The notes below the pieces were generated by a model. The model worked only from the letters and a program-made list of their open reading frames with translations. It searched no databases and was not told where the DNA came from. Of a stretch of DNA of 39,350 bases, positions 3,890 to 38,700 are shown piece by piece. Position 1 is the first letter of the stretch; each line of letters opens with the position of its first letter. This DNA is from Welwitschia mirabilis (Eukaryota). The position numbers were made by a program, and so were the translations under genes. The stretch spans positions 41,405,467 through 41,444,816 of the forward strand of contig JBOZIK010000001.1 in the NCBI GenBank assembly GCA_051453625.1. Reading direction: 5' to 3'.

Positions 3890-6800
3890 TTCTTAGACAT
3901 GATACACAGAAAGTAATGAAGTACAGCAAAACAATCAGACAATAAAGATTTTGTAGAAATATCTACCAATTGATCTTAAGTACAAACATATTAAAATATG
4001 ATAATTTTCTTCTCTACCAAGTCTCAGATAAAATGATACCTGAGATTAATGTATTTTTTGTAAGTGTGTTGAACTATATTATGTATAATTTGAATAGCAC
4101 TGGAGTTTTCACATAGAATAATAACTTTAGAGATGGCTAGGCCATAGTCTTTTAAAGTTTCTTTCATCCATAGCATCTGAATGCAGTGAGTTCCAATAGC
4201 TATGTGCTCAGCTTCTGTTATAGATAGAGATATGGAACATTACTTCTTGTTGTACCTAGTGATAAAATTATCAAAGAAAAAAGCATTCACCACTTATGTT
4301 CTTTTGATCACCTTTTCATCCAACCCAGTCCACATCACTATAACCTATTAAACTTAGAGAAGTATTACTTAAATATCATAGATTAAAATCAAGAGTACTT
4401 TAACATAGTAAAGTATCCTCTTTGTAGTAGATAAATATGATTCTTTTGATTTACTTTGATACTTGGCACATAAACTAACACTCAGTGCTATGTAAGGATG
4501 ACTAGCTATTAGATACAATAGACTTTCAATAATTCTATGGTATATCTTTTGAACCACATCCTTTCTTTCTTCATCAAGAGAAAGTTTGACATTAATAGCC
4601 ATTAGAGAGTCCATACTTTTGGCATTTTTAAGTCTAAATTTTTTGATGAGATCTAAAGAGTATTTCTTCTAATTTATGAAGATACCATTTTTATGTTGTT
4701 GGATTTGAATATCTAAAAATATGTCAACTAGTCTAATCATACTCATTTTGAACTCAAATCTTATTAGAGTTATAAAATCATTTGATAAGCTTTCATTTGT
4801 TAATCTAAAAAATAATGTCATCTACATATATTTGAACANNNNNNNNNNNNNNNNNNNNNNNNNNNNNNNNNNNNNNNNNNNNNNNNNNNNNNNNNNNNNN
4901 NNNNNNNNNNNNNNNNNACAAGAAAAGTTTCTCATACCAAGCTCAAGGATATTGTTTTAACCCATACAAATCCTTGTTAAGTTTGTAGACATATTTTGGT
5001 TTTTGAGGATCAGAAAAGCCTTGTGGTTGTTTTACATAAATGTCTTTCTCAATGTGACCATCTAGAAAAGTACTCTTTACATCCATCTAAAAAACTTTGA
5101 ATTTTTTATAATAAGAAAAAGATAGAAACATTCTTATATACTCAAGTCTAATAGTAGGAGCAAAAGTGTCATCACAATCTACTCCTTATATTTGAGAGTA
5201 CACTTCAGCTACAAGCCTATCTTTCTTCTTAGTAATCTCATGTTTTTCATTTACTTTATTTCTAAAAATCCATTTTATGCTTATATCATTTTTTTCAGCT
5301 AGATTAGGAATAAGATACCACACCTAATTTTGAGAGAATTATTTAAGTTCTTCTTTCATTACATTTATTCAACATGGATCAGATTTAGCCTCCTTAAAAA
5401 TTCTTAGTTTCATCTAAGATAATAGAGAAATATAGGCATTAAAATCCTTAAGAGAGTTTCTAGTAACTATACCTTATTTCACATTTCCAATGATTGAATC
5501 CAAAGGATGATTCTTAGGCTCTTTAATTTCTGGTGCTAGGTTATCTTTTGAAACATCTCTATTTTAGTAAAAAGAAGAAAGAACTACATCATCATCTAGT
5601 TTAGAGGATTTTGTTGAATCAGGTACATCATGAATTTTAACATTCATAGATTCTTCCATATAAAAAATGTGTTTGTTAAACATTTTATAAGCTCTACTTA
5701 ATTAAGAGTATCCTAAGAAGATTCTTTTATTAGATTTAGAATAAAATTTAACCAGAGCCTCTCAATCTCTTAGGATGAAGCACTTACTTCCAAAGGTTTT
5801 CAAATAGGATATATTGGGCTTCTTCTCTTTCTAGAGTTTGTAAGGAGCTATGGAAATACCTAGTCGCAAATAAACTCTATTTGAAATATGATAAGCTGTG
5901 TTTACTACTTTAAATCAAAATCATTTTGACATATCTTTATCATTTAGCATAACTCTTGTCATGTCTAATAAAGTATGATTTTTTCTTTTAGCTATTCCAT
6001 TTTGTTGAGGAGTCTTTAGGGCTCAAAATTCATGGTCAATTCCATTTGAGTTGCAATAATATTCAAATATTTAATTCTTGAATTCTCTGTCATAATTACT
6101 ACAAATTTTCTTAATGACATACTGCTTTTTAGTTTGGAGTTTTTTGTAAATTCTAACAAAGTTGTCATAAGCATCGGACTTTGCATGAAGAAAGACTATT
6201 GGGGAAAATCTAGAAAAATCATCAACCATGACTAAAAAATATCTTTTTCCAGATAAGCTTATTGTTTGAATAGGGTAATCAAATCCATGTGAATTAAATC
6301 TAAAGGCTTGCTAATATTAATATCACTTATTCCTTTATGAGAAGCTTTGGTTTATTCCCCTCTTAGGCAAGCATTACATAAGTCTTTATGAGTAATAGAA
6401 AGTTTTAGAAGATCTCTTACAATCTTAACACAACATATTTTCTNNNNNNNNNNNNNNNNNNNNNNNNNNNNNNNNNNNNNNNNNNNNNNNNNNNNNNNNN
6501 NNNNNNNNNNNNNNNNNNNNNNNNNNNNNNNNNNNNNNNNNNNACCCAAGAGAATCTAGAAAAATCATCAACCATGACTAAAAAATATCTTTTTTTAGAT
6601 AATCTTATCATTTAAATAGGGCCAACCAAATTTATATGAATTAAACCTAAAGGCTTGCTAGTATTGATATTACTTATTTCTTTATGAGAAGCTCTAGTTT
6701 GTTTTCCTTTTTGACAAGCATCACATAAGCCTTTGTAAATAATAGAAAGTTTTGGAATACCTCTTACAATCTCACTATGATATATTTTCTTTAAATTTTT

Positions 6801-8806: not shown

Positions 8807-10086
8807 TAAAACATAGATCGACCCTAGAGTGAGGTGAATAGGCTATTATAAAATATTCATCCACCTTGAAGACCTATAAATAAAAAGCGAATACACTACC
8901 AAAAATTCACATGATGTTTTAATCATGGATAGTTACCACCCTTCAACTCTTAGACACCAAGTCTCTAGCTAGCATAGATTAACCTCAATGATTAATTTTC
9001 AGACTCACCAAAAACTTGTATAATTACCAATGGATTTTGGAACTAATCCACAACCACAGAAGAATGGATTTAAGCTAGATGCACAAATGCATAGTTATGA
9101 ACCATATGTACAAATGCAAAGTAAGCTCTGATAAGTTAGATAAGAAGAAGATATAAAATGTAAGAGAAATCTGATCTTATAATCTTTTAAGCACAATGCA
9201 TACAGAACATGTAACAGTGATAGATGTTTTTTATATATCAAAAGCTATGATCTTCATTGAAAATAAAGGTCTTTAAATAGAGCAATTAAAGATAGCCATT
9301 CAAAGGGCAAAAATGGCTATTGCAAATTGGTTTTGCCTATTTCTGATAAATTGTGAAAGTGTACCAGCTATATTATAAATGGATTGATTTGACCTCACAA
9401 GAATCTTGGTCATCCTAGTATTCATTTGCCTTTAACAAAATATTAGGTTGCCCTTAATTGATTCAATTTTTGATAATCTGCTTATTCAATCACCCTTATG
9501 GAACCATTAGGTTTTTTGTTCCTATTTTAGTTTTAATAGTATTACTACTAAACTTCGGTCACCTTCACAAAGAAAAGGGGTTAACCTTATATGACGTTAC
9601 CCAAACTTTAACAGTTCAATCAACCTTTTAATGGCTATTTCTTGCATATAAATCAATCTCCTATGCATGTGTCATTAATCATCCTTACTATTAGTTAATT
9701 TGAAAATTTCCAAAAGAGGTTCAGTCACCCTTGTCATTAGTAGTCGATTGCCCACTTATTTCTTAGTCTGTACTAGCTTTAATCATGTGGTTGTTCCACC
9801 TGTGATATAAGGTCACCCATGTTGAAACTGGCGTCTAGCTGACTAGTAGTTTAGTTGCCCCATCTTGAAAACACAATTGTCTGACCCTAAAGCAGTTTGA
9901 TATTACTGATAGTCCGGTCACCCAGGTTTTGCCTTTTGGCCACCCTCATATTACTCAATATATATTCATATGTTTGTTTGATCACCTGTGTATCTGGAGC
10001 AGTCGTTAAGTTCTAGAAAATCTCTGCAAAATAACTATATCCACAAAAACTCATTAATTAATCAATGACAATAGGTTTTTTCAATA
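8807..10086 (-). repeat. 5' LTR of the Sirevirus
   Basis: Homologous to 692-1976. Both terminal dinucleotides have decayed (TG>TA, CA>TA). Followed by TSD ATACA. Confidence 0.92.
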
Positions 10087-11447
10087 ATACATTTGTTAAC
10101 AACTTGGTTTAGAAAGTAGAATTAAGCCTACATCTATTATCTTAGAATTGGTAAATACATTAGTAAGAAACCTTTAGGAATAATAAAAGATTTGGGAATT
10201 TTAATTAATGAAGCTTTCTATCCAATAGATGTGGTTGTAATTGAAGTTGAACATAATAAAGATTATCCCTACTTCTAGGTAGATAATTTTGTGTAATAGC
10301 CTATTGTATTATTAATACAAAAACTGGAATGATGGAATGTCACTTAGGAAATAAAAAGTTTACCCTTAGAGTTTTTGATGCTACTAAAAAAAATCCTAGG
10401 TAATGAGTTCAATATTGAAGGAGAAATTAAGCCAACACTATTTTAATAACATCATCCACTTAAAGAAAGATGGTTAATGTTTTATGAGCTTATCTTATTT
10501 GATAATCCACTTAAAGTAAAAACTTAAAAGCTTTAAAAGATTATCAACTTAACTATGAGCATTTAGATACTAACTATTTTGATTAAAAGACTAAAATAAC
10601 TAAAACTACAATCTATGAAGAAGCACAACATCTAAAAACAACTAAAATTTCATATTTTTATGGAGGTCATTCGTCCTAATCATTCAAATGAGGTTCTGAG
10701 ATGACAGTCAACTTTGATTAAAAAATTAACAAAAACTAAAAATTTGAATTTAAATTTGAAACCTTTACTGAGTGGATTAAAATATATCTTTTTATGTGAT
10801 GATCAAAATAAATCATTGATACTAAATAAGAATCTTTTTCCTTAAAAAGAACCAATTTTAATCTCACTTTTGAATTCTAAGGTAAATGCATTTTTTTGGA
10901 ACCATAAAGATTTAACAGCCATTCCAACTTTCACTATTTAACATAAAATTCACCTTGAAAATAGTATAAAACCTATTAGTTAACTCCAATGTAGACTAAA
11001 TCTAGCCCTTCAACAAGTCATAAAGGATGAAATTATTAAATTAATAAATGTTGGAATTAAGAAAGGTGGAAGTGGAGAATGTGTATTGATTTTAGAAAGA
11101 TAAACAAAGTAATGAAAATAGACCATTGTCCTTTACCTTGTCTTAACCAAATACTTGATAGAATCTAAACACATGTATTTTATTGCTTTCTTAATGGGTA
11201 TAGTGGTTATAATGAGGTTTGTATCACTAGTGAGGATCAAGCTAAAATAACTTTTACTTCACCTTTTAGAACTTTTGTCTTTAGATATATGTCTTTTATA
11301 CTTTGTAATGCTCTTGGCAATTTTCAATGTGTAATGATAAGTATCTTTCTTAATATGTTAGAGGATCAAATTTAAATTTTTATGGAAGACTTCTTAATCT
11401 ATGGTGGAAACTTTGAACAAATCTTACAAATGTTAGAGAAAGTCCTT
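10087..11447 (+). pseudogene. Gypsy protease C-half and reverse transcriptase N-part (degenerate)
   Basis: Continues YIC*QLGLESRIKPTSIILELVN from 691. RT motifs WRMCIDFRK, DHCPLPCLNQILDR, YCFLNGYSGYNEV, LCNALGNFQCVM and IFMEDFLIYG. Confidence 0.9.
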
Positions 11448-11745
11448 CACTATAAGAAATATAGAACTTTAAAGCATTTTTAAAATTCCTTAAAAGTCTA
11501 TAAAAAATGCCTTTAGGGCTTTTAAGGAATTTCATCAAAAAATGCCTTTCAAAGCATCACCTTAAAACCCTAGATGATTTTAAGGCATTTTTAAGGTGTT
11601 TAATAAAAATCCCTTAAAAGATCTTTTAAGGCATTTTTTGTAAAGACACCTGGCAAGCCTTTTAAGGCACTTTTTATAATAAATGCCTCAAAAGGCTTTT
11701 CAAGTGTTTATTCGTTTAACCAAATAAATACCTCAAGAGGTATCA
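11448..11745. repeat. CACTA TIR plus subterminal repeat array (putative TnpA binding sites)
   Basis: Many direct and inverted copies of TTTTAAGGCATTT / AAATGCCTTAAAA variants. Confidence 0.85.
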
Positions 11746-13449
11746 CTTAGGTAAAAAGAAAATTACCATATAAAATGGTGGTTTTCTTTGAAAGATATAT
11801 GTCATTCGCATTTGCAAAAGTCATTATGATTTCTTTACAAATGTGATATGCAAGAACATATATCAGAGGAATTATTTTTATAAATTCTTAAATCTTACAT
11901 ACCATTGATTCATCTCCATTTTCTCTAGTCCGCTTCTACTCCTAACAAGCCAAATCCTTCTGTTCTACCCACATTAGGCACATAGAAAATTTTCCATTAA
12001 AAAAATGCAAAAACTAAAATGTTTTATGGCCAAACAAAAGTGAGAAAAATGTAGGAAGAGCAAACCCAATAAATTCAAAATCTTTAAAATTAATGCAAAG
12101 GTGTGAAACCTATAAAATTATCAAAAATCATCATCATATGCCTGGCTATGGTCCTTCCTCATTTGCATGATCACTGCTCTACCTGTTGATCTAGCTGACA
12201 TCAGTAAGAAGGCCATGCCTTGAGATCCAAAGTCAAGTTGGGTGTACATAAATATTATTCTTTTTTTTTAAAAGTATCTAGCGAACCCCTCTTAATGTCA
12301 AATTCCTAAACGCATGAATTTAACACTAGAATTATTGGAACATGCCTCTAGCATAGCATGATAAGACTTGAGACAAATTTTTCAAAGGATATGAAAGACA
12401 TTATCAAGAATAATAAGGAGCTTTATGAAAGACAATAATAAGGGACCAAACTTAAAATGAAACTTGGGATAATAATTTGAAGACCACTGCAATAAGAGAG
12501 ACATCTCAAGCTTTAAATATATTCAGCATTCCAACCTACCTTTCATTAAAAGTTTATCTCCTTTTACTTGGTGATATTTCGTTGTGGCAATCTTCAGCTT
12601 TTTCATTTCCAAAGCAAGACAACTTCTGCTTTTAATGGTTCTTCATAGGCTTCCCCACTTAAAACTCTCGTTTAGTGCCTCTATGTTACTGCTTATACAA
12701 GATGCTTCACGTTAATCTATTGAGATTGCCTCGAAGTGTAACTTCCTTTCCTTGAATCCTCTATATCACGTGATGGATGAAGATCAATGAGATGAGGGCA
12801 AGATGATGCTGTAGCACTCCTTCAAAAAATCCATCACAAGAGTTTTGTTGTTCAATCAAGCGGGTTAGATGCTCTTCAATGCATCTTTCACTATAGAGAA
12901 CTTAAAAGAAGGATCATGAGATCAAATCTACCATTCAAAGATGAAAATCGCTCTACAACTCAATTTTTATAGAGTATTTTTTATTATGTTACAACAAGAT
13001 ATGTATTTGTTTGAGTTTTGAGAAAGTTTTAAGCCTCTAATCCAATCACTATTTTCAAGGATTCCTTACATGATAGCCATCGCTCCTTCTCCAGCAAATA
13101 ATAATAATATTCTTTTCAAATTGCGTATTTGGAAAAGGCATGCTGAGCCTCATAAATTATACAACCCAACAAGGGATAAGAAAGTGAAGTTATAGAATTT
13201 GAACAACACATCACTCATGTCATAAATACATATGTCATACATCTAAAGAGATATCCCATCAAATTTCAATCGATGATAATTTTTTTATGCTATCAGTCCA
13301 CTAACAAGATGTCTTTACAATACTTAAATGAAATAAATTAAATAAAAGAGATTAGTATGACAAACAATGGATACAAAATTGTCACTTATTGATAATATTA
13401 GCAAGATCCAAGAATAGTTCATTATAACTAAACACCTCTTTATTAGTGT

Positions 13450-13915
13450 TCAAATAGAAATCAAGTTACCCAATGGAAATCAAGCAATAATGCCACATCC
13501 CGCTGTTAGGTCAAATTGTCTTAGATACATGATTACTTCTGGAATTGGAAGATAGACATAGTGTGTGTTACAGATTCCCACTATAATACCACTGAAACCA
13601 GTAAAAGCTCCATAGACAGCATTTTGTCCAAGGACTTTGTAGACTATTCCATCAGATGTATTAGTGTGAATTGCATGTATCATGCAGGTAAGATCAATGT
13701 ACTTAACATCTGCAGGCATGCTAATTCACTTGAAGTGTTTCTTGGCCTGCTGCTAAAAGTGAATACTAATATCATTTAGAATAGGATTTCTTGAAGGATC
13801 TGTTGCGTTTTTTTTTTTTTTTTTTTCAAACAACTCCCATCCTGCTCCTTTGTTAACACAGATAACTACAAATCCTTTTGATCTTAATAAATTCTCAAAA
13901 TGCATTAGCAACCTC
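13450..13915 (-). pseudogene. PFK5: Captured fragment: C-terminal part of ATP-dependent 6-phosphofructokinase, PFK5-like
   Basis: LLMHFENLLRSKGFVVICVNKGAG...NATDPSRNPILNDI...ADVKYIDLTCMIHA...VLGQNAVYGAFTGFSGIIVGICNTHYVYLPIPEVI matches the plant PFK5 C-terminus (DVKYIDPTYMIRA...VLGQNAVHGAFAGFSGITVGICNTHYVYLPIPEVI). Has stops and frameshifts; no intron seen. Confidence 0.88.
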
Positions 13916-14234
13916 ATCAAAGTTCATTAGTGTACTAAAGTATTCATAATATCATTAGGATGCTCATCAGTCTGCTCACTAGTTTGTCCTGCTTCTCCAC
14001 GTCTAGTGAATCAAGAGTATCGTCAGAAAGTAAGATGTAGTTATCACGGCCTGGAAAGTTATTTATAGTTGTTGCCTGAATGTCACTATCTTATGCATAG
14101 TTTGCTAAGAAGTGAAAAAGAGAAAAAAAAAATACAAGATGGGCTATAAGCCAAATACAGAGATCACAAAATGATTGAAGAGGAAAAATATTGCAACTGA
14201 GCTAAGAAAACAGAGGATGCGAAGGAAGGAAACG

Positions 14235-15030
14235 ATGGAGGTTGAAATTGTGAAGTTACTGAATGACAAACAAGAATACAAGACGATAGTTCTTTCAAAC
14301 TACTTGAAGATCCTTCTTATCAGTGATCCTAAAATGGATACGGCTGCTACAACTACGAATGTATCTACTAGGGCATTTAGTGATCCAGATTCTTAGAAGG
14401 CTTGGCTCACTTCCTAGAACATGTGTTTTTTCTATGCAAGTGAGAAATATCTTTTGGAAGATAACTACATAAAATATCTTACAAAGCATGGAGGGAAATC
14501 AAATGCATTCATTGATGGTTGATGACTAAATCAGTTGTAAAAACATCTGATTTTAGTAGATCATACCTATCACAAATTTAGTACAAGAAACTTGGAAAGT
14601 CTCGATGTTCATGCTCGAGAAAGAGGGTTAGATATTAGACATGAGCTGCTTAAGTTCTACAATGATCATTACTCAACAAATCTTATGCACCTTGTAGTAT
14701 ATGGGAAATAGAGCATTGAAAAACTTGAAATAATGATGGACTCCAAGTTTAGTGCAATAAAAAAAAAATACTTAGAAGTCTTATTTATATTTTATGAGGA
14801 AACCTTGTCATGATGAACATATACAGATCTTGGTAAAATGTGTTCCTATGAGGGAGAAGCATACCCTGAGCATTTTATGGTCTATCACTCCTAAGCCAAA
14901 ATTCTCAAAGGAAGGGCCTTCAAAACATCTTGGCCATCTTATTGGACATGAAGCAGAAGGATCCTTATTTCCTTTGCTTAAAAGCCTTGATTGGGTAAGC
15001 AGCTTGAGTGTAGGAAAAACAGGAGAATAA
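14235..15030 (+). pseudogene. Captured fragment: N-terminal part of insulin-degrading enzyme-like M16 metallopeptidase (PXM16/IDE-like), intronless
   Basis: MEVEIVKLLNDKQEYKTIVLSNYLKILLISDP...LEGLAHFLEHVFFYASEKY (HxxEH at 14408-14422)...HKFSTRNLESL...NLMHLVVYGK...HLGHLIGHEAEGSLF. Has frameshifts, stops and an internal deletion at ~14513. Confidence 0.92.
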
Positions 15031-15780
15031 TAGGGAAGTTCATAAACTTACACTTGTATTAAACATGCTCAATCAGTGCATTATTTACTCAATTTTGTCT
15101 TCACTAATTATGGAATGTACATGTTAATGTGCTATTGCCTTATTTTGGATTGAGTTTGTATGAGAAGTATACTAGTGTTGGAAAGAATTACAACCTTTAT
15201 CAAGAATTCCAAGTGATGGAAATATTGATATTTCAAGTCGTTTGATACATTAAAAGCAAACACATGCTCATCTCATGCATTAATAAGAAAGCTTTAGGAT
15301 GCCAAAAAGATCAAAATGAAGATAAAAACTTTAAAGAAAACATGTTCATCCTGAGAAAGCCCCAAGGTTTTATCATCCTGAGAGTCATAACATTGCCTAG
15401 ATGTTCCTTTTGGAAGTACTACTACATTTTCAAATTGTTAGTCACACTGTTGAACTACATTGTGTAGGCTAAAACATGTCGATTAATTGAGATAATTCTT
15501 TTAAAGAGTAATTTCAGATTAACTTCTCCATATTGATAAAATGTGCAAGATTCATTATATTTAGGTGTGGCTGTACTAATCAAGATTTTAGTTTCTTTGT
15601 AGAATTCTCCTTCTCTATTATCTACACATAATGGCAAAGTCAGCGAATTAGTATGTGGTAGTATTTTCAAAAATGAGCAAAGCACTAGAGCTTAAAATAA
15701 TTGAAGGCTTTAAATTTAGTGGAGTAAATAGCTTCTACTATAGGTAGAAAGTTAATGCATGACACTTGTTGGATCATTAC

Positions 15781-15979
15781 TTGCATCCAATTTAAATTAC
15801 CTTCTTTAGCTTCTTGATAGATGTACATGACAAGCTAATTGATCTTTCCCTATTGAGAAATCACAAGAGGAGAACAAATCCCACTGCATCCATCACTTGG
15901 CTGAGAATCAATAGAAATACCAGTAAAATCATATCCTCTGTATTCTAATCTCTTCAAACCATTAAACAACCTCTAGAAT
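15781..15979 (-). pseudogene. GFAT: Captured fragment: N-terminal glutaminase domain of glutamine:fructose-6-phosphate amidotransferase
   Basis: Manual translation ILEV/FNGLKRLEYRGYDFTGISID...PLVISQ*GKIN*LV matches the GlmS/GFAT motif GLxRLEYRGYDSAGI. Not in the ORF track. Confidence 0.85.
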
Positions 15980-17574
15980 GTGCTTCTTGTTGATGATAAG
16001 AGCTTTGGCAAATTCTGTCTTAAAAATGCCTTGTCTATGCTTGAAGAATATAAGCAAGCATTTTCTTCCTCTAACTCCTCAAGTAAAGCCACTATTTGAA
16101 TTATTATGCACATGCACATCCTTAAAACCTTTTCATTCTTTAATATATGTTAGGACTATATCTAAAGAAGTAACTCGAAACATTCTTAACTAGACTTTAC
16201 TTGGGCATAACTAAACAACTCATGCTATCATTAAGGAATGAACTTAAGAGCGAGCAAAGATGGCAATAATCCAACTAATGGCACTAGCAGTGACATTATT
16301 AAGTAGCATCTCAAAGAGAAGGGACAGAACAGTTTCTAGAAAGCCATTTAATTTGTTATTTGAAATGTTTACTCTATGGAGATGATTTAGTAATGACACA
16401 GATCAAGAAATTGAACAAATGTTTTCATTTTTTTTTTTTTTTTGTTGGACAAGCTAGTTCCTCTCTTGCCCAATGAATTGATTGTACTACCATCTAAGAA
16501 GGAAGAAAAATTAGATATCCAACAATAGCATGGTCAATACTCAGATGAAGGAAATAATAATCTTGGACATAAGAAATTCCCCATAAATTTTTCATCTTCT
16601 ATAAATGTATTCAAATTTTAGGTAGTTTTATGGGAATCATTTTCACCATCACCACACTCTTTATTTTGGTTGTTTCTATTGCAATCCCATTAAACAAGAA
16701 GTAGGATTCATCTGCATGCCATCAGATCTATTCTTTCAATACTCAAAAGAAAAACTTATAAAAGCTCAGGTTGGATCATTTTGTAATAAAAAACCTTAGG
16801 ATGTCAAAACTGTACTATTATTACATGGCTTGGATCCCAATTCCTTCTTCTTTCTAAGAGTTCTCATTGAAATTGCTGTTAAGGGCCTTCATACTATGGC
16901 CCTTGATTTGTTAACTTTGATTTTTCAGATAAAATGGGTTTCTACAGGGACGAGAGATGTGATGAACTCATTAGAAGAATTTGAAATGATTATCTATAGA
17001 TCAAAGAAAAGAGAATTTTCTACAGCTTTGAACATATTTTAGAAACTAAATAATGTGATATGTGAAGGCACAAGGTTTTAAGGTAAATATGAACTGATAT
17101 CCATTGGATCGCAGTGCCAGTGAATTAAGCTAGAACTTAGAATAAGTCAATGAAATATTCCCAGTTTGGTTCCTCAAGTTGTCTTAAGTTTCTTTCTTTG
17201 CTTTAAACTTGAAAGTAAAGTCAGATTTGAAGTATTCAATGAGAAAATTCAAAGGAAACGTAAGCTCCAAGAGCTAAAAAAAGAATTGTGCCATTTTGTT
17301 TAGCTTCTCTGACCTGCACTCTAGTATGCTAAATCCAATGATCTACTAAAACAAGGAAAGTAATCACAGATTGGCTAATGAAAATTTACACAACTTAGTA
17401 ATTTTCATCACCATAAGAAATTAGGAGATCTACAAAAACTAGGGTTCTTTGTAATCAAAAGAACAGTGAACATACTATATAAAAACAAATAATAACTAAT
17501 AAAGCACATCCAATGTTTAGCTAAATCTTTAAGCATAGAAGAACTTGCAGCTCATGCACTATGTATACCTTAGC

Positions 17575-17745
17575 TGATTCGCGATGCATAAAAGTAAAAA
17601 GACCTTCACCAATCCTTAAAGCAAAAAGACCTTGACCAATTCGTGATGCACAGAAGTAAAAAGACCTTGGTCGATTCTCTGATTCTTGACAAACAAAAGC
17701 AAAAGACCTAATCGATTCTCTGATTATTGACACACAGAAGCAACC
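17575..17745. repeat. Degenerate short tandem repeats (~27-41 bp units, core AAAAGACCT) inside the Pack-CACTA
   Basis: Four to five imperfect units of the form GATTC...AAGYAAAAAGACCTT. Confidence 0.6.
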
Positions 17746-17979
17746 CGTGTATTATGTTTTTGAAGGAATGCGCATGAAGACCTTATTAGGACACACACCG
17801 CCAAATACCCAATGCAAAAATGCATGGCCACCTTTGCCACTGGTCTCTCATTTGCAACTAGCCATGTCGCTTGTTCTTAATACACAAAAGCATCCTATGC
17901 ATTATGTTTTCAAAGAAATGCACACGATGATTCTATTTTTATTTTTGGCAATGCTTTTACTTTTGTGTTTGCTATAATA

Positions 17980-18217
17980 CGGTGTTTTTAAGGCATTTAT
18001 CCTATCATTGTAAGGCGTTTTTAAGATCAAACTTAGCGTTTAAGGCCTTTTTCTTATTAAATTCCTTAAACGATCAATCAATTTGATTTGGCAAAAGGCC
18101 TTCAAAAGAGCATCATTGTTTTTATTCAAGGTTTTTATTAAAATAAATGCCTTAGAAATCTTTTAATTAAAGCGTTTATTTTAATAAATGCCTTAAAAGC
18201 CTATTTTTCTTGCTTTC
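17980..18217. repeat. CACTA subterminal repeats and damaged right TIR
   Basis: TTTTAAGGCATTT / AAATGCCTTAAAA copies ending in CTATTTTTCTTG (18201-18212), the near reverse complement of the left TIR. Confidence 0.82.
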
Positions 18218-20265
18218 CTTGATAGATGTATTAAGAGTGGCTTACATTTGAGTTGGGAGAAGAGTTTATTTTTAGTTGATAATAGAATTATCTTAAGTCA
18301 TTACCTTTCTAGTAAATAAGTTAGGATGAATCCCAAAAATGTATTATTAAAAACCTAACTCCTTAAACAAATGTAAAACAAGTTCAATCTTTCCTTGGTT
18401 ATTGTGATTTTTATTATCATTTTATTCAATATTATGCTAAAATTTATAAATGCTTTCACTTGTTACTTGAAAAAGAATCTAAATTTGAATGGAACAATTA
18501 TTGTTAGCTTGCTTTTGAAACAATTAAAGATAAAATCTCTTCCACACCTATTGTAATAGGACATAATTGGAATAAAGATTTTGAATTAATATGTGATGCT
18601 AGTAATATTGTCATGGATATGGTTCTTGAACAAAAATATAAAAACGATTTTAAAGTTATATCTTATCATCGCAAAACTTTATCTAAAGCTCAATCAAATT
18701 ACACTACTAGTGAGAAAGAAATATTAGTAATAATCTTTTACCTTATATACTTAAACACTATCTTTTAGGCTTTCATATAAATGTTTATACCAATCATGCA
18801 GCTATTAGATACCTTATAATCAAGAAATATTTTAGTGCTACACTCATTAGATGGATCCTCTTCATGCAAAAATCTAATATTACCATAATTGATAAAGCAA
18901 GGAAGCATAACAGTGTAGTAGATCATTTGTTATGTCTTTCTTCTTCTCTTGATGATCTTGTGATTGATGATTCTTTTCTGAATGAATAACCTTTTTCCAT
19001 ATCTTCTACTCATCCTCATAACCTTTTTCCATATCTTCTACTCATCCTCCTCCTTGATATGCTAACATATTTAATTATCTTATTACTATGAAAACATCAC
19101 AACATTGGACTTATAATCAGAGAAAATCATTTCTTCATAGAATCACTAATTATGAATAGAGCCACATCTTTACTGTAGGTGCAAAGACCAAATCATGAAA
19201 AAATATATATGCTCAAATCAAAAAAATTAGACATCCTTAATCTTTGCTATGGTGGTGTTTATAAAGGTCATTTAAGTCGATAGAAAATAATATTAAATAT
19301 TCTTTACTCTGTTTTTTATTGGCCTAGTCTTTTTTGGAGTTTTTTTTATTTTGCTAGAAGGTGTGATATCTGTCAATGTTATGATAACCATATTCATTTT
19401 CATGATATGTTTCTTAAATTTATTCTTGAAGGTAAACCTTTTAATTATAGGCCCTATTACACCACCTTATAATCATAAGAATTACATTTTAGTGTTTGTT
19501 GATTATGTTACTAAATGGATTGAATCTATTTCTACCTTTATGAATGATGCCCGAACTATTTATACTTCTATTAAAACTCATATTTTTCAATGTTTTGATT
19601 TTCCTAGAATTATCATTATGATCAAAGAACTCATTTTATTAATTAACTTTTAAGGAGACTTCTTTTATCCATTGGAATTGAACAGAGAATAGCTTATGCT
19701 TATCATCCACAAACTAATGGTCAAGCAAAAAATGCAAATAGAGAAATATAGAAAATGCTATAAAAACTTTATCTCTATTAATAAGAAATCTTGAGCTTCT
19801 AGTCTTAATGATGTTCTTTTAGCTTACCATGCTACTTGGCATAATTTTCTTGGTTTTTCACCTTATGAACTTATGTACAAAAAAGTTTGTGTTTTACTAC
19901 TTAATGTGTGTTATATCGTTCTTCTTATCAACTTAATCTTTAGATCTTCATAAAAATATTAAAAATAGATTATTCCAACTTACTTACTTAAATGAAAAAT
20001 GTACTCATGATATACATTGTCAACTCATTCACAAAATCTAATCTAGATTCAAACATGAGAAAAAGTTTCTTTATTAAAAGTTTGAGTAGGGTCAACTTGT
20101 TCTTTAATACAACGTTAGAGTACATATTTTACATAATAAGTTTACCTCTAAATGATTAGATCCTTATCTTATAAAGCAAGTACATTCTAATGGCTCTGTT
20201 AAGATTACTGACTTAGACACTAATAAGATTCAGAAAGTTAATGGATAAAGGTTGAAAATATATGA
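18218..20265 (+). pseudogene. Gypsy RT C-part, RNase H and integrase (degenerate)
   Basis: LSWEK, VQSFLGYCDFY, FELICDASN, NYTTSEKEILVI, YILVFVDYVTKWIESI, AYHPQTNGQAKNANREI and KVNG*RLKIY. Confidence 0.92.
18986..19049. repeat. Perfect 32-bp tandem duplication
   Basis: ATAACCTTTTTCCATATCTTCTACTCATCCTC twice. Confidence 0.9.
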
Positions 20266-21892
20266 AAAGCCTTTTGATGCAATTTTGAACATGATTGAAG
20301 CAATTGTTTTGGAGGTTCCCCTCAATGGTAAAGACTTCCTCTCTACCATTATTTGAATTTTCTTTTATCTTATTCCTTTGATGAATGTTATGATATTATT
20401 CGATCATCTTTAACTTGACTCATGGATTTTTTTCTCATGAAGTTTCTATGACTAGCATTTGTACCTAGGCATTTTTATATTAATAAGATTAGATTCACCT
20501 AATCTTGAGAGATTTACATGTCTATAAACTTCATTTTGAAGGAAGATGTCTTGGTTCTTGTGCTTTTTTTTTTTAATGGTGTGAGATCTTTAGTTATTTA
20601 AGTGTATTCTTTTCTATTTTTGATCTTACTTCTTCACTTTAATTTTTTTTAAAGTATGTGATCATGTAAGAATTATTCATATATAAAAAAAAAGAATAAT
20701 GATTATAATATATTGTATCTATGCTAAAATACATGATCACCATGATGTCCTATTACACTAAGGTAAATTTTTCTAAAAGGAACCTTTAGTAGTTTTGATA
20801 GCTATAGGAACTCCACTGGGGGGATCAATTAGCCATGCTTCACAGATCCTCTCTTCTTTGACTATGATTGCACTCCCTTCATTATGGAAATTAGTAACAA
20901 AAATTTAAGGGTATGGAATTAATGGTGTTCCTTATATCATTAAAAGCATTGCCTATTTTTTAGACTCTCAGTATTTCCACATGTTTTGAGATGTGAAAAA
21001 ATGAGTTCATTTCTAAAAAGCTTTTGATCTTATCATTCATTTATTTGATCACATAATCTTTGGTATCATTATAATCACTACCTTTTCAAGTGAAATTTTA
21101 TGGAGTTAATATGTTTTATTATGTATCTTTACTTAGGTGGATTTATGATGTCTTTTGAGAGGGTTTGCTAGGTTAGAATTTAGGGTAGTTAAGCTATCTC
21201 CTTCATGGTCCTTATGTTCATTTTCGTTCTCTTTTTCTTTGGTTCTTTAGTTTGTTATTTTAAAATCATTTCATACTTTTTCATCATTAACTAAAACCTT
21301 ATCATTTCATATTTTTCTTATTATTATTTTCATTTTTACTTGTTTCATTTTATCTATAAAAAATTAACTTCCTTTTATTAGTTTAATTAAATGATCTTCT
21401 CTTCTTCTTAGATGAATTTTTCATGATTTTTTAATGAGGTTCCTTTGAGTCTTATTTGGAGTTTTACGTATTTTCATGATCATTTTTAAGATTGGATATA
21501 TTTATTTAGTTTTCTTTGTCAGGCTTCCTCTTCCTTTGTATATTTTCATTGCCCTGTCTTTTGATTTCTTTGAGTATCCTTGTTCTTCATGATTCTTCAC
21601 TGTTTTCTATTTTTTGAGTTTTTTAATACATTCTGCTACCTTCACGTTGATATCTAAGCCTAACTTGTTTGGCTAATATTTTCATTTTTCTAAAAATTTT
21701 CAAAGTTCCATCATTAATCAGCTCATCCATATGACATGAAGGATAATAGCTGAGATTTTTCTAAGAGCTTTCCTAAGGCTATTGTCCAAATGATAGGACT
21801 AGACAATAGTGTGATAAAACCATGGATTTCTTTTTTACCCCTCATTTTTCTTTCATTCTCTATCATTTTCATCCATTTCTATGAGAGAGTAC

Positions 21893-22977
21893 TCTTGTGC
21901 TACCAATTTGTGGTTATTTGATGGGGTTTTATGAGCTATTTTATAAGACTTTTATATAGGTTTAGGTGAAATCTTGAGGATTTTGATGAAATGATAGAAG
22001 ATCTTAAAAATGTGAAATTATTACCTAGATTTGATGCATTTAAGATACATTCTGATGCACAAAACTCTAGAGGAATATTACTGATAAAAATGCTAAGTTT
22101 TCCTCAACAAAATGATTAAATAAGACCATTTTTCTCTCTATTTTTCCCATGATAGGTAGGATGATGACACCACTACTTGCTGATGTAGATTACTAAATCA
22201 TTGCCGAGTTATCACTCTAAGTCATCATTTATAAGGAGTTGTTGTTTCCTTTATTGTCTGGACAATAGCTGGGATGACATTGACATGTAACCGACTCTAA
22301 TGACTGACCCTTGATCATTTTATCCATTTCATATCTCTAATAAACACATCTTATCATGCCTTCTGTCTATCATTTTCTACTATAAGTTGTTACAAAAAGT
22401 TCTCCTTTGACTTTTCTTCTCACCTTTATTGCATTAGAAATTCTTGTGTCAAGAGATCAAAGGGCAGAAGATCCACCTCGAGTATTGCAGAAAGACATTT
22501 CCTCAGTGAAGGGCTATATATCCTCTATTAAGGCTCAGCTATTTTGTAACCTAGATGTTGTTACTCCTCTTAATACAAAACCTTTTTATTTTCTTTATTG
22601 CATATTATATTGTCTAATGACCCTTATGTTTTATGATTGCCTTGATCTGGTGATAATTTATTGGGTGATATAAATTATTAAGAGTAGACTTTATTAAGGC
22701 TAAAAGGAAGTAGCTTAAAATTATTTGCATTTGCATTTAGATCAGATTACATTTTTATTTGCATTTTATATTTACTTTTCTGCATTATTTTTTATTGTTG
22801 ATTCCTATTTATTTTTGAAAAGAAATCCAAGTCTCATCTTATAGTCTTCAACAAGAATATAATATTTGGGTTAATTTCCAACTATAGTAGTGTGATGTAT
22901 TGTGTAAGATATCTATTTTGGTTGTAAGTAATAAAATATTTTTTAGTATAACACTTGTATAAATACATAGCGCAATA
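21893..22977 (+). repeat. 5' LTR of nested Athila-type element
   Basis: Aligns with 26950-28023. Followed by the PBS. Confidence 0.85.
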
Positions 22978-24715: not shown

Positions 24716-26949
24716 NNNNNNNNNNATAGAAATCTTTCAACCAATAAAAATCTTTTACCAAAGTTACCATTAATCTTTTCTTTAACTTTCAAAATTTTTA
24801 CTTTAATGTGGTCTCATAGAGTGTTTCCATTATCCCTCTTTCCATCCAATTGATTTTACTTGAAAATAATTGTACATGTTTTATGTTTTATCAATTGGTA
24901 AATTTTTGGTTTGGAATTTATTTCTCTAAAAGAATGCAATATCTTGAGACCAAAATAGATTCTTAAATTTTTCTTCGTTCTCTTCAATAAAAGTGTGATT
25001 AGACTTTTAGGATTTAAGTAAAATTTGCTTGCTTTGATATTTATTTTTTGGCTTTCATGGTTCTTTTAATTATGCATTTTCAGCTTTCTATTTTGATAGT
25101 CTCTATTTTTATCTTTCTGATTTTAGTTTTTGTTTCTATTTGTAGTTTGTATTTTTGTTTTTATAATAATAATCTATCATCTTCTCTATTGTTCTCATGA
25201 CAAACAAGGCAATAGTCATCTTTTTATTATCTATTTAAGTTTTCTATGTTCTATTTCTATTATATCTATATGTCGTCCTCTTTCTCATCTAGACAACTAG
25301 TAGGATGATAGTTGTTAATAAATCATTTTTATTTTCTATTATTTTAAATAAAATACATTTTTATATCTCTATTGAGATTTTTGACTTAACTACTTAAGAT
25401 TTCAGGAAGTAAACGGGTGAATTTTAAAATTATTTGAACACACCATTTGAATTTTCTCTTATCTTTTTGGTTTAGAGATTATTATGGTATTACTTGATCA
25501 TTTTCAAACCTGACTTATGTATTTGTCTCCATGATTAATATTTTGACTTTGGCATTTTAGTGGTAATATTGGATTCCCCTAATCTTAGGCCATCACACAT
25601 TAATGAACTTCATTTTGAAGGAAAATTCTTTATTTTTCACTAGTAGAAAGGTCTTAGATTATTTAAAAAGTGTTCTTTTCTATCTTTATTTTACAACTTT
25701 CACCTTTATATTTTGGGATGTTTAGTTATGTGGAATGTGTTTTATGCAAAAAAAAAAAAAAATCAAAGAATGAAATAAGACCATGATGTTTTTCATTTAT
25801 AATATTTCGAAAACATGGTTGCTATGATATCTTACCATAAGTACAAAAGGCAAATATTTATGAGAGGAGCCTTTAGCAGTTTAATATAGTAGCTATGTGA
25901 ACTCCACTAGGAGGTCAGTTAGCCATGCTTCACAGGTCCTTACTTCTCTAGTGATAGCTACACTCCCATCATCATGGACAATAAATTTGTAATAAAAACC
26001 TTGAGCCTATGGGAGTAGTGATATTCCTAGTATCATCAGAGCATTACTTATTTCCTAGACTCTTATTCCTTCCACATGCTCATTTCATTTCATGATATTT
26101 GGGTGTTAGTTTTGAGATAAGGGTAGGAGAGTTCAATTTTGAGCAATTCTTTGGTTTGATCATTCTTTTTATCTTCAACGTTATCATAATCACTATCTTA
26201 TCAAATGAAATTTTTTTATACTTCAAGTCATGCATTTTCATATTAAGTGATGTTATCATTTCTTTCATAGAGTATGCTAGATTAAAATCTTAGATAGATG
26301 GACTATCTTTTGATTCTATTATGCCCATTTTGTTTGTCTTCATTTGTGGTCTAATTAGTTATTTTAAAGTAATTACATATTTTCTTATCATGTTTTTCTT
26401 ATTCAGTTTTTAATAGAAGTAGATTTCTTGCTTAGTTAAGTTTTCTTAATAAATTTTATGATGTTTGTTTTTAGATTTTTTGTGTTATAAGAACTGTTCT
26501 TAATCATTTTTGTAATGAAACATTTTTATTATCCACTTTTTTTTTTTTTTACTCGTTAGAATATTTCATAGATCTATATTTTTCAAATCTAACATTACTT
26601 AGCTTTGCACTTTATTTAGAAAGTTATTCTTTTTTATCTGCCTTCTCACTCCTATTTATTTTCTTTGCTCTACTTTCCAATACAAGATGTATTACTTTTC
26701 TTTGAGGAAGATAAGCACACATTTTCATGGCTTATTTTCAAAATTTTTAACTTAATTTAGATCTTTCATGAGATAAAATTTTCAAATTTTTATACACATT
26801 ATACATTACTTGTTATTTATCTATGTGATGTATTTTATTAGCCTATTTTATAATTTCCAAATTTATCTTTTGAAAAAAACAAATTGGCTCGCAATTATGG
26901 TTTTTCGCTTGGTTTTGTTAAGGAGTGACAAAGGCTAAGTAGAGGGCTA

Positions 26950-28023
26950 TGTTGCACTGCTAATTTATAGTTATTTTATGGGGTTTTATAAGCTATTTTG
27001 TAGTACTTTTATATAGATTTAGATGCAATTTTGAGGATTTTGGTGAAATGATAGAAGATCTTAGAAACATGCAATTATTACTGAGATTTGATGCATCTAA
27101 GGCACATTCTAATGCAAAGAATTTTGGAGGAAGATTCCTAATAAAAATGCTAAGTTTCTCCTTAACAAAATGATTAAAGAAGATCATCGTTCCCTTTATT
27201 GTCCCCGTGATAAGCACAACCATGATACCACTACTTGCTAACATGGATTGTTGAATCACTACTAAGTCATAATTCTGAGTCATCTTTTATAATGAATTGT
27301 TGCCCCTTTCATTGTCTAGATGACATCCGGGACAATACTGACATGTAGCCAACTTTAATAGCCAACTCTTAATCATTCTGTCTATTTTTTATCTATAATA
27401 AGTGCATCTGATCATGTCTTGTGTCCATCGTTTTCGACTGTGAGTTGTTATAGATAAGTTTCCCTTTTCCTCTCCTTCTCATCCTTATTACACTAGAAAA
27501 TCATATGATATGAGATCGAATGGTGAGAGATTCATCTTAAGTATTGCAAAAGGACATTCTATTGATGGAGGGTTGTGTATCCTTTATTGAGGCTCAGCTA
27601 TTTTGTAACTCATATGTTGTTACTCTTCTTAATACAAAACTTATTTTTTTATTTATTACATATTATATTATCTGATGAACCTTATGGTTTGTGATTGCCC
27701 TTGATCTAGTAACAATTTCTTAGGTGATATAGATCATTAATGGAAATCTTTGTTAAGGCTAAAAGGAAGTAGCTTAGGATCATTTGCATTTGCATTTAGA
27801 TTAAATGCATTGCATATTTACTTTCCTACATTGTTTTTTATTTACAGTTTCTATTTACCTTTGAAAAGCAATGCAAGTCTCATCTGATAGTCTTCAACAA
27901 GAATACGATAATTAGCTTAACTTTTAATGATATTAGTGTGATGTATTATGTAAGATATCTATTTTAATTATAAGTAATAGGATAATTTTAAGTATAATAC
28001 TTACAAAAATACACACTACAATG
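26950..28023 (+). repeat. 3' LTR of nested Athila-type element
   Basis: Starts TGTTGCACTG right after the purine-rich AAGTAGAGGG (PPT). Ends CACTACAATG, a decayed inverted terminus. Confidence 0.85.
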
Positions 28024-31721: not shown

Positions 31722-32085
31722 TACTATAAGAAATATAGGATTTTAAGGCATTTCTAAAATGCCTTAAAAATGCTTTAGTTCTTTTAAGGTGTTTCTTCAA
31801 AACACGCTTTAAAAAACATCTCCTTAAAATCCTACATGCTTTTAAGCCATTTCTAATGCTTTTAAGCCATTTCTAATGCTTTTAAGGCATTTCTAAGATG
31901 TTTTTATTAAAACACATTAAAAGACCTTTTAAGGTGTTTTTATGAGAAACGCCTCAAACATCTTTTAAGGTATTTCTTGCAATCAAAAGGCTTTTGAGGC
32001 ATTTCTCACAAAAAATGCCTCAAACACCTTTTAAGGTGCCTCGTAAGGCTTTTGAGGTAGTTTATTATATAAAAACCTTAAATCC
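31722..32085. repeat. CACTA TIR and subterminal repeats, including a 20-bp x3 tandem at 31836-31896
   Basis: TTTTAAGGCATTT-type repeats; ATGCTTTTAAGSCATTTCTA three times. Confidence 0.85.
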
Positions 32086-35761: not shown

Positions 35762-38700
35762 AGTAAAATGGAAACAAAGACAAGTATGCACCACCTCTAA
35801 TGTTCTTTTTACTTTTGACAACATAGCCACATGTAGTATTCACCTAAATCAATATCATAACATAAAATATAAATGAAAACTATATTAATTATGTAATATT
35901 TTTAGTGTAAATAAACATATAATCTCTTATAACATGCATATTGTAAACACTCTAGAGTTTGTAAATTTAAAGCATCAATAATGGTGTCATATAAATCTAT
36001 TCAAGTCCACTTCATGTTTTTAACTTTAGCATCATTCTCCTTATTAAGAAGGTAACTATGGTGTNNNNNNNNNNNNNNNNNNNNNNNNNNNNNNNNNNNN
36101 NNNNNNNNNNNNNNNNNNNNNNNNNNNNNNNNNNNNNNNNNNNNNNNNNNNNNNNNNNNNNNNNNNNNNNNNNNNNNNNNNNNNNNNNNNNNNNNNNNNN
36201 NNNNNNNNNNNNNNNNNNNNNNNNNNNNNNNNNNNNNNNNNNNNNNNNNNNNNNNNNNNNNNNNNNNNNNNNNNNNNNNNNNNNNNNNNNNNNNNNNNNN
36301 NNNNNNNNNNNNNNNNNNNNNNNNNNNNNNNNNNNNNNNNNNNNNNNNNNNNNNNNNNNNNNNNNNNNNNNNNNNNNNNNNNNNNNNNNNNNNNNNNNNN
36401 NNNNNNNNNNNNNNNNNNNNNNNNNNNNNNNNNNNNNNNNNNNNNNNNNNNNNNNNNNNNNNNNNNNNNNNNNNNNNNNNNNNNNNNNNNNNNNNNNNNN
36501 NNNNNNNNNNNNNNNNNNNNNNNNNNNNNNNNNNNNNNNNNNNNNNNNNNNNNNNNNNNNNNNNNNNNNNNNNNNNNNNNNNNNNNNNNNNNNNNNNNNN
36601 NNNNNNNNNNNNNNNNNNNNNNNNNNNNNNNNNNNNNNNNNNNNNNNNNNNNNNNNNNNNNNNNNNNNNNNNNNNNNNNNNNNNNNNNNNNNNNNNNNNN
36701 NNNNNNNNNNNNNNNNNNNNNNNNNNNNNNNNNNNNNNNNNNNNNNNNNNNNNNNNNNNNNNNNNNNNNNNNNNNNNNNNNNNNNNNNNNNNNNNNNNNN
36801 NNNNNNNNNNNNNNNNNNNNNNNNNNNNNNNNNNNNNNNNNNNNNNNNNNNNNNNNNNNNNNNNNNNNNNNNNNNNNNNNNNNNNNNNNNNNNNNNNNNN
36901 NNNNNNNNNNNNNNNNNNNNNNNNNNNNNNNNNNNNNNNNNNNNNNNNNNNNNNNNNNNNNNNNNNNNNNNNNNNNNNNTTGATATACATGAAGTACTTG
37001 CAATTATAGAAACTCCACTATTTTGACATGTTAACTCTACATCTCTCTTCTTTACATGAAACCTATACCCATTAATTGGGCATATCTTATACCTTTGTGC
37101 ATGTCTACTTGGAGGATGTGACAACCCTTTTACTTCTTTTTTTTTGGTTCTTTATTAAGCATGCCCTTTACTCTTAACTTGTAAATCTAAAACATCAAAA
37201 AATTTATATGCATACATATTATAAATATCATGATTGCATGGCCATTAATAACATTATATAGAAAGTATTATACATTACATGTTCTTCAAACTAAGTAGTA
37301 AAGCAATCTCTATGTATTTAAAGCTATGAAGAATTTGTCATTCATGAAAAGCCTCTACGAATTTCTTGTAGGTGTTGACCATACACATAATATAATTAAG
37401 GATGTATACAATAACAATAAAATAATGAAATTATGATTAACTTATGTCAAATATAATTTAATGCATAGGGTGTTAAACAACACATATCTATGTGCCTGTT
37501 TAATTTCTATGTCATTTGATATCTTTCTATCTACAACACCTAGTAATCTTCCTTTTAGATGTATAGTTGATTCATTGGAACTAGTTTTAATAACTTCCTT
37601 ACGCTGTAATGGATTTTCAAATGTATTGATATTTATCATGTACTTAGTGCAAAAACTTAATGCTTTCTCTATAAGAAAAGCTTCTAAAATACATCCCTCT
37701 AGCTTTTCTCTTGTTTTTGACATATCTTTTTAAAACTTTCAAGAACCTATATGGTAGATACATTAAAAATTTATAGTTAATTCATAAGTATTAACAAGCT
37801 ACATTTATAATAAAAGAAAAAAATTATGCTTATTATCTTTCTATAGGATACATCCATCGATATTACATAGGGCCACAAAACCTAATCTCCCTTACCAAAT
37901 GGATAGCTAAATACATTATGACATCAAAGAAAGATGAAGAAAATATTCTCTCAAGATCACAAAGTATGATAATAGTTCTNNNNNNNNNNNNNNNNNNNNN
38001 NNNNNNNNNNNNNNNNNNNNNNNNNNNNNNNNNNNNNNNNNNNNNNNNNNNNNNNNNNNNNNNNNNNNNNNNNNNNNNNNNNNNNNNNNNNNNNNNNNNN
38101 NNNNNNNNNNNNNNNNNNNNNNNNNNNNNNNNNNNNNNNNNNNNNNNNNNNNNNNNNNNNNNNNNNNNNNNNNNNNNNNNNNNNNTATTTGTCATGTACT
38201 TATGCTTCCTCTATAAGAAAAGCTTCTAAAATGCTTCCCTCTATTTTGTTCTTGTTTCTGACATACCCTTTTAAAACTTTCAAGAACCTAAATGATATAC
38301 ATGTCAAAACTTTACAATTAATTCTTAATTATTAACAAGCTACATTATGGCCAAAAAAAAGTATTCTTATTACCTTTCTATAGGATATATCCATTGATAT
38401 TACACAAGCCTGTAAAACCTAACCTCCCTTTTCAAATGAATAGGTAAAGGCATAATTATATCGAAGAAGGGTAAAGAACATATTTTCTCAAGATCACAAA
38501 GTATGATAACAATTCTTGATTTTNNNNNNNNNNNNNNNNNNNNNNNNNNNNNNNNNNNNNNNNNNNNNNNNNNNNNNNNNNNNNNNNNNNNNNNNNNNNN
38601 NNNNNNNNNNNNNNNNNNNNNNNNNNNNNNNNNNNNNNNNNNNNNNNNNNNNNNNNNNNNNNNNNNNNNNNNNNNNNNNNNNNNNNNNNNNNNNNNNNNN

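Follow-up and report, generated by a model that had tools for sequence, protein, structure and literature searches.

An intron-free patchwork of three host-gene fragments in a putative CACTA-like element of Welwitschia mirabilis

Can a plant DNA transposon carry host-gene sequence that was copied from spliced mRNA? The question is raised by a stretch of Welwitschia mirabilis DNA of 39,350 nucleotides (referred to as the window and numbered from its first letter), in which an intron-free fragment of a gene for an insulin-degrading enzyme (IDE, peptidase M16) lies between ends of CACTA type. How Pack-type DNA transposons gain host sequence is debated, and the printed models are set at the DNA level. 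The capture model for Pack-CACTA elements is of this kind (PMC6379663, in part; papers so marked are cited for the part of their text that was accessible). The locus analysed here provides a concrete case where cDNA, not chromosomal DNA, may be the captured material of a CACTA-like element, and the hypothesis is testable across many copies in a repeat-rich genome. Its significance is mechanistic and modest.

Anatomy of the patchwork and its putative host element

The window consists of AT-rich repeat DNA of a seed plant (29.5% G+C), and its best protein matches are to gymnosperms. The features involved are as follows.

11448..18217, plus strand: putative non-autonomous CACTA-like element, 6.8 kb, containing all three gene fragments.
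13100..13911, minus strand: 3' part of a gene for ATP-dependent 6-phosphofructokinase (PFK5-like); the stretch from codon 391 through the stop occupies 13911-13454 and is followed by about 350 nt of 3'UTR.
13808..13826, plus strand: T19 run, which reads as A on the coding strand of PFK and forms an expanded Lys/Asn stretch in the PFK frame.
13914..14150, minus strand: piece of a gene for an AP2/ERF transcription factor, corresponding to about residues 297-372 of protein P0242, in the C-terminal region and not in the AP2 domain.
14151..14197, no strand: linker of 47 nt between the ERF and IDE fragments, to which the IDE 5'UTR consensus has no significant alignment.
14198..15022, plus strand: IDE (peptidase M16) mRNA-derived fragment, intron-free (tblastn and frame-aware alignment).
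14508..14513, plus strand: junction of a 54-codon gap in the IDE fragment (tblastn and frame-aware alignment), junction codon ATT.

The IDE fragment was delimited by tblastn with P0001, a 1005-aa plant IDE-type peptidase from a transcriptome in which PF00675, PF05193, PF16187 and PF22456 are all present. Residues 1-230 of this query match 14235-14762 and residues 230-315 match 14764-15021 (65/86 identical), with a joint E-value of 4e-84, whereas residues 316-1005 have no match anywhere in the 39-kb window. The fragment comprises 37 nt of 5'UTR, the ATG at 14235, codons 1-315 and the first base of codon 316. The earlier note on this DNA had described about 800 nt of IDE-like sequence running without an intron from an ATG through HFLEH to GHLIGHE, and both the tblastn match and the motif coordinates agree with that description: HFLEH, the HxxEH zinc-binding motif, is at 14408-14422, in a frame that differs from that of the ATG, and GHLIGHE is at 14932-14952.

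The limits of the fragment were compared with parent transcripts. Two DNA-contig runs (X1 and X5) and two raw RNA runs (X14 and X17) were aligned to 12900-15600 at 80% likeness. Likeness to the parent IDE mRNA starts at 14198, where 42 X14 reads continue unlike the window, and stops at 15022, beyond which 22 X17 reads continue; in our translation the read consensus past 15022 gives residues 316-325 of P0001. Past 15022 the parent mRNA did not align with the window. On the other side, the parent 5'UTR consensus against 14151-14197 obtained a score that was reached by 227/300 shuffles (0.07 in an anchored test). Since there is no significant alignment before 14198 or past 15022, the IDE piece is internal to the mRNA at both ends.

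The ERF fragment was recognised through a 48-aa minus-strand ORF matched by P0242, an AP2-domain protein carrying PF00847, in a library-wide phmmer search (E 5e-7, 78% identity). By tblastn, aa 310-354 of P0242 correspond to 14111-13983 (34/45 identical) and aa 353-371 to 13989-13933; read-consensus likeness extends to 13914 and 14150 (0/300 shuffles each). The stretch 13942-14197 had been a candidate for IDE 5'UTR and was rejected, as phmmer, tblastn and the read consensus all identify it as the AP2/ERF fragment on the opposite strand. At window position 14057, parent ERF transcripts carry 3 additional nt (GTT, 23/77 X14 reads) or 6 (GTTGTT, 13/77), either a length-variable Asn run in the coding strand or the trace of two paralogs.

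The PFK fragment was identified via an 81-aa minus-strand ORF for which 304 of 324 candidates reached E<=0.01, PF00365 being present in 119 of the 120 listed. The conifer PFK P0003 matches by tblastn (E 4e-51) from aa 391-521 at 13911-13510 (91/134 identical) and, within the same match, from aa 517-540 at 13525-13454. RNA coverage of the piece runs from about 13100 to 13809, and the 3' limit of about 13100 was taken from 90-nt depth bins and from one contig end at 13100. No poly(A) remnant was found at the 3'UTR end near 13100, so that the PFK piece is 3'-anchored and tailless. Two distinct consensus sequences of loose PFK-read ends occur at 13509-13532 (81 and 79 X14 reads), which suggests two expressed PFK paralogs resembling the fragment.

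No poly(A) tail was found around the IDE fragment either, as the earlier note had already remarked; the only nearby long A/T run, the T19 run at 13808-13826, was rejected as a tail because it is within the PFK reading frame. An A-rich spot near 13285 was likewise rejected, since parent RNA reads cross it. Loose ends at 13441, 13509, 13532, 13752, 13942 and 14113 were not retained as ends of homology: read-consensus alignment and comparison by eye indicate alignment breaks in decayed sequence.

The ERF and PFK fragments meet head to tail without a linker (13911-13914, within 3 nt), both in sense orientation on the minus strand; the IDE fragment is on the opposite strand, 47 nt from the ERF fragment. 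An IDE 5' part, an internal ERF part and a PFK 3' part are thus assembled into a patchwork of about 2 kb made of three host-gene fragments.

This patchwork is located between CACTA-type ends. The 5' end of the putative element, at 11448, reads CACTATAAGAAATATAG, and the 13-nt subterminal motif TTTTAAGGCATTT has 31 matches in the window versus 6.25 expected, a number reached by 0/100 shuffles. These matches are clustered, with ten at 11467-11693, seven at 17986-18198, ten at 31741-32025 and four elsewhere; at both element ends (11467-11693 and 17986-18198) they are found on both strands. The first and third clusters begin with CACTATAAGAAATATAG or TACTATAAG and align in the same direction at 71% over 273 nt. 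An inverted 3' end lies at 18183-18211: the reverse complement of 18186-18211 agrees at 24/26 positions with the terminal region of the copy at 31722, and the inverted end aligns with the 5'-type end at 75% over 53 nt (blastn), matching from the 7th base inward. Its outermost 6 nt, GCTTTC, mismatch CACTAT. If the element ends at 18217, it is flanked on both sides by CTT (11445-7 and 18218-20), an agreement expected by chance in about 1 of 64 cases. Taken by itself, the terminal 17-mer lacks significance: 12/100 shuffles give at least two matches.

The earlier note had placed the IDE fragment inside a DNA transposon, and it does lie between these ends, with no transposase found between them by Pfam on ORFs, a weak negative since the decayed PFK ORF also escapes Pfam. 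In 11700-18000, no Pfam family reached E<=0.01 in the 11 ORFs of at least 70 aa, nor did any credible family reach E<=0.05 in the 43 scanned ORFs of at least 38 aa, where the sole hit was DUF4806 (E 0.045, below its cutoff). Self-comparison detected no LTR-like direct repeats in 10-20 kb; its five hits in 10000-20000 are 44-75 nt long, four of them palindromes in the subterminal clusters and one a short direct repeat. Apart from the ends, the interior of the element has no similarity to the rest of the window. On these sequence grounds 11448-18217 is a putative non-autonomous CACTA element with a replaced interior, with about one chance in four that it is not, a doubt to which the imperfect 3' tip contributes.

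At 31722-32040 there is another CACTA-like 5' end, oriented like the one at 11448. Beyond it lies a DUF4218 remnant at 37445-37729 on the minus strand (PF13960, E 4e-6, at cutoff), a domain that occurs in plant CACTA transposases. The window also contains retroelement debris. Direct repeats at 719-1924 and 8833-10034 (about 76-84% alike, about 8.1 kb apart) enclose an integrase-core (rve) remnant at 6074-6310 on the minus strand, and together they are probably an old LTR retrotransposon. A further pair at 21884-22976 and 26941-28022 (73-83% alike, spacing about 5.06 kb) is either an LTR pair or a tandem duplication. A Ty3/gypsy-type RT-RNase H remnant at 18508-18986 on the plus strand (PF17919, E 3e-17; PF17917) begins about 290 nt past the putative CACTA-like 3' end. 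Nine N runs totalling 1625 bases are mostly in the last 4 kb (e.g. 4839-4917, 6444-6543 and 36065-36979 over the whole window), where the assembly has gaps.

Decay and further copies

The IDE piece is a dead, decayed pseudogene fragment, a putative transposon passenger without functional weight. In the frame-aware alignment 275 codons are paired with P0001 and 200 are identical; the final 15 pairs lie beyond the point where homology stops. The reading frame is interrupted by three frameshifts (one of -1 nt at 14391, one of +1 at 14426/7 and one of +4 at 14759-62) and by five in-frame stops (codons 150, 151, 156, 213 and 233), and 54 codons (T93-L146) are absent in frame at 14510/14511. The full four-domain IDE (PF00675, PF05193, PF16187, PF22456) is absent in open frame; only residues 1-315 minus the 54 codons are represented, and the stop-free pieces fall below Pfam cutoffs. 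At the gap, the codon ATT could be composed of the first base of Thr and the last two bases of Val, as phase-1 exon skipping gives.

The same three indels are revealed by RNA reads of the same species label: a G follows 14391 in 33/42 X14 reads, and the 4 nt at 14759 are left out in 29/65 RNA reads. A contig of X5 (record 10) has 0 differences over 13836-14672. Junctions and defects are therefore present in reads too and are not errors of this assembly alone, although X5 may be the source sample. Differences of X14 RNA from the window are one-sided, with A>G 100 and T>C 97 versus G>A 27 and C>T 31, and only 7 CpG are left in the 825 nt of the IDE piece; taken together these are a sign of long silencing by cytosine methylation. 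For annotators this comes as a warning, as scraps with an ATG, HFLEH and GHLIGHE may pass for gene models.

Several DNA contigs carry the patchwork or its borders. X5 contigs with 0 differences cover the patchwork region. A 1191-nt contig of X5 (record 9), about 85% alike, is collinear with the window from 14320 to 13171 and includes the IDE start, linker, ERF and PFK at equal spacing; X1 record 4 is its shorter counterpart. The flanks are shared as well. X1 record 6 covers 14781-15113, with the IDE end and its flank, and picks up again at 15445; X1 record 1 covers 12921-13200, with the 3' end of PFK and its flank; and site 14881 is covered by 3 other contigs in X1 and 4 in X5. The listing behind this evidence comprises 16 of the 130 contig pieces and 24 of the 170 loose ends. 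Contigs about 85% alike with identical junctions indicate that the patchwork is multi-copy and old, and the collinearity of copies including their flanks indicates that it was assembled once and then multiplied with its flanks. Judged from these alignments, the copies have diverged by about 15% since multiplication.

The 331-nt segment 15114-15444, absent from another copy, contains a small high-copy repeat at 15356-15400, a stretch of about 45 nt that is bordered left and right by loose ends and recurs in many contigs (at 15363, 9 from X1 and 12 from X5).

Transcription of the patchwork copy was not detectable in the two RNA runs X14 and X17. RNA reads at least 99% alike to the window number 0/1148 in X14 and 1/470 in X17, and most reads are below 90%. 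Being 80-95% alike, they come from the parent genes and not from the window copy. Beyond what the earlier note had reported, the fragment is thus decayed, carries a 54-codon gap, is one of three host fragments and has further, diverged copies.

The intron question

Plant IDE and PFK genes typically carry many introns. AP2/ERF genes of the kind found here are usually single-exon, so the ERF piece is uninformative on intron absence. No description of plant IDE gene structure was found in open-access literature searched by title and beginning of abstract. Within the 315 codons of the IDE match, tblastn and frame-aware alignment detected no intron-sized insert, and the PFK piece is also intron-free from codon 391 through the stop and the 3'UTR.

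Intron sites were obtained by scanning metagenome contigs, the query being aligned N-termini of four plant IDEs. The scan returned 599 pattern matches, 423 of which encode relatives, and the best 80 of these 423 were examined. They are full-length intron-free matches (prokaryotes and spliced transcripts), together with three partly spliced plant transcripts; seven of the 80 are 66-74% identical to P0001 and were taken as plant transcripts. No genomic plant IDE locus was present among the best 80 of the 423 relatives. In one of the partly spliced transcripts, L067, codon 172 is split behind its first base by an intron (G|GTAAGA), of which at least 272 nt are retained. In L006 codon 213 is likewise split behind its first base, by a GT..AG intron of 94 nt, and L007 has a GT..AG intron at the same site. 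The three are taken to be partly spliced IDE transcripts of other plants, so that the intron sites are not this species' own. All three retained introns are in phase 1. The window is uninterrupted at both places, codon 172 (14586-8) and codon 213 (14709-11).

A 640-nt genomic contig of the same species label (X1 record 5) bears on the structure of the parent gene. It matches 14589-14880, and 346 further letters match no listed piece. The match breaks off 2 nt from where the codon-172 intron sits, which suggests that this genome has an IDE locus with introns. Against this, the contig passes codon 213 unbroken: either this species lacks the intron at that site, or the contig itself represents a processed copy. 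Further exon-end signals may lie in contig pieces and loose ends beyond those listed.

The right-hand flank was also considered as the next IDE intron. This is disfavoured, as the window after 15022 reads GA, not GT, which makes the flank unlike an intron start, and shows no similarity to the parent mRNA onward. A LINE-type retrocopy of IDE is excluded because the 5' part is kept and there is no tail; such a pseudogene would be anchored at the 3' end and finish in poly(A), and the piece lacks both residues 316-1005 and poly(A). The proposal of the earlier note that the template was spliced RNA gains support from the uninterrupted codons 172 and 213, where other plants have introns, and is retained as the best reading at a middling level of confidence.

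Proposed origin, rival explanations and known systems

The preferred explanation, in which moderate confidence is placed, is that a DNA transposon came to carry reverse-transcribed pieces of host mRNA. For IDE and PFK the template would have been spliced mRNA, and the reverse transcriptase would have come from the genome's retroelements. Direct sense-sense joints of chimeric retrocopies arise through template switching, and the sense-to-sense ERF-PFK joint, with PFK reaching the mRNA 3' end, may be the product of such a switch. The inverted IDE piece and the 47-nt linker would result from end joining of a separate cDNA as filler; the opposite IDE orientation does not follow from a simple series of template switches and counts against the proposal. 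The patchwork could have been put in as filler when a break or excision gap was repaired, or the element could have taken it in as a chimeric retrocopy that was integrated beforehand. It would then have been multiplied together with its flanks, we infer by the CACTA element, and afterwards have decayed, chiefly by C-to-T and G-to-A changes. A more specific version is tentative: a CACTA family would have taken reverse-transcribed mRNA pieces as repair filler, and the 54-codon gap would be a frozen exon-skipped IDE splice form. If true, a retroelement reverse transcriptase and a DNA transposase would jointly constitute an exon-shuffling route missed by standard Pack-element screens. One such screen removes intronless captures by design (PMC8277862).

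The same anatomy is also accounted for if a CACTA element captured pre-existing IDE, ERF and PFK retrocopies, or a single chimeric one, as genomic DNA in the Pack-type manner, for instance between neighbouring insertions after aberrant excisions. Capture of DNA between close insertions is the model for Arabidopsis Pack-CACTA (PMC6379663, in part), and for bat Helitrons both the retroposition of new retrogenes into the element and the capture of existing ones have been described (PMC4224331, in part). Nevertheless, such a capture presupposes a source site at which three pieces, retro-derived or intronless, were already adjacent, and it is regarded as doubtful. The patchwork might otherwise be a retroelement or chimeric retrocopy that landed in a CACTA remnant, its copies being due to retrotransposition or segmental duplication. 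Sense-fused intron-free pieces of several genes are typical of retroelement-borne captures, retroelement debris is nearby (rve at 6074-6310, RT_RNaseH at 18508-18986), and LTR elements dominate gymnosperm genomes, in which captured exons occur in all major superfamilies (PMC13477047, in part). However, 10-20 kb is devoid of LTR-like direct repeats, 11700-18000 contains no retroelement domain, no poly(A) tail is present and the flanks common to other copies (12921-13200; 15023-15113 and 15445 onward) are without retroelement features, so this explanation is unlikely.

Capture of the gene itself at the DNA level is unlikely unless the parent is without introns. Ordinary genomic capture would suffice if the parent IDE (and PFK) gene of this lineage were naturally intron-free over the captured stretch, and the unbroken passage of X1 record 5 through codon 213 means that at least one intron known from other plants may be missing from a genomic locus of this species. 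This is judged improbable in view of the two intron sites in IDE transcripts of other plants, one of them common to two different plants, of the position 2 nt from the codon-172 site beyond which the same contig has no listed match, and of the IDE ends, both of which are inside the mRNA, with a flank after 15022 that begins GA. Introns could also have been captured and lost later, if the element recombined with cDNA of its own spliced transcripts. For CACTA transposase genes, a loss of introns through reverse transcriptase has been argued (PMC4158355, in part) and the captured fragments of soybean Tgm-Express1 are spliced (PMC1947982, in part), but IDE and PFK lie on opposite strands, so that spliced transcripts from both strands would be needed, and no intron-bearing copy was seen among the 16 of 130 contig pieces listed. 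This last explanation is considered highly improbable.

Gymnosperm genomes contain on average about 400,000 captured coding fragments each, preferentially from exons one and two, and at least two fragments are present in 13.68% of host elements on average (PMC13477047, in part). In the accessible text of that survey, intron-free multi-exon captures in DNA transposons are not separated out. Searches of the open-access literature, main texts only, yielded no earlier account of a plant CACTA element with an intron-free patchwork of several genes.

Among known systems, maize Bs1 and template-switched chimeric retrocopies reportedly contain intron-free pieces of several genes fused in sense, like the ERF-PFK joint. 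Unlike Bs1, the patchwork described here has no LTRs, retroelement genes or poly(A), and its third piece is inverted. The putative element resembles Tgm-Express1 of soybean (PMC1947982, in part) and Pack-CACTA of Arabidopsis (PMC6379663, in part) in being non-autonomous, with CACTA-type ends and subterminal repeats, and in having its interior replaced by several unrelated host-gene fragments in mixed orientation. In contrast with both, two multi-exon regions are intron-free here, the 3' tip is imperfect and the element is putative. Bat Helitrons differ in being rolling-circle elements of mammals, whose nested cases are 5'-truncated, with poly(A) and L1-type target duplications (PMC4224331, in part), whereas the IDE piece is a 5' part and tailless. 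Their likeness to the present case lies in the intron-free, mRNA-derived host sequence that they hold within a DNA transposon and that is amplified with it (PMC4224331, in part).
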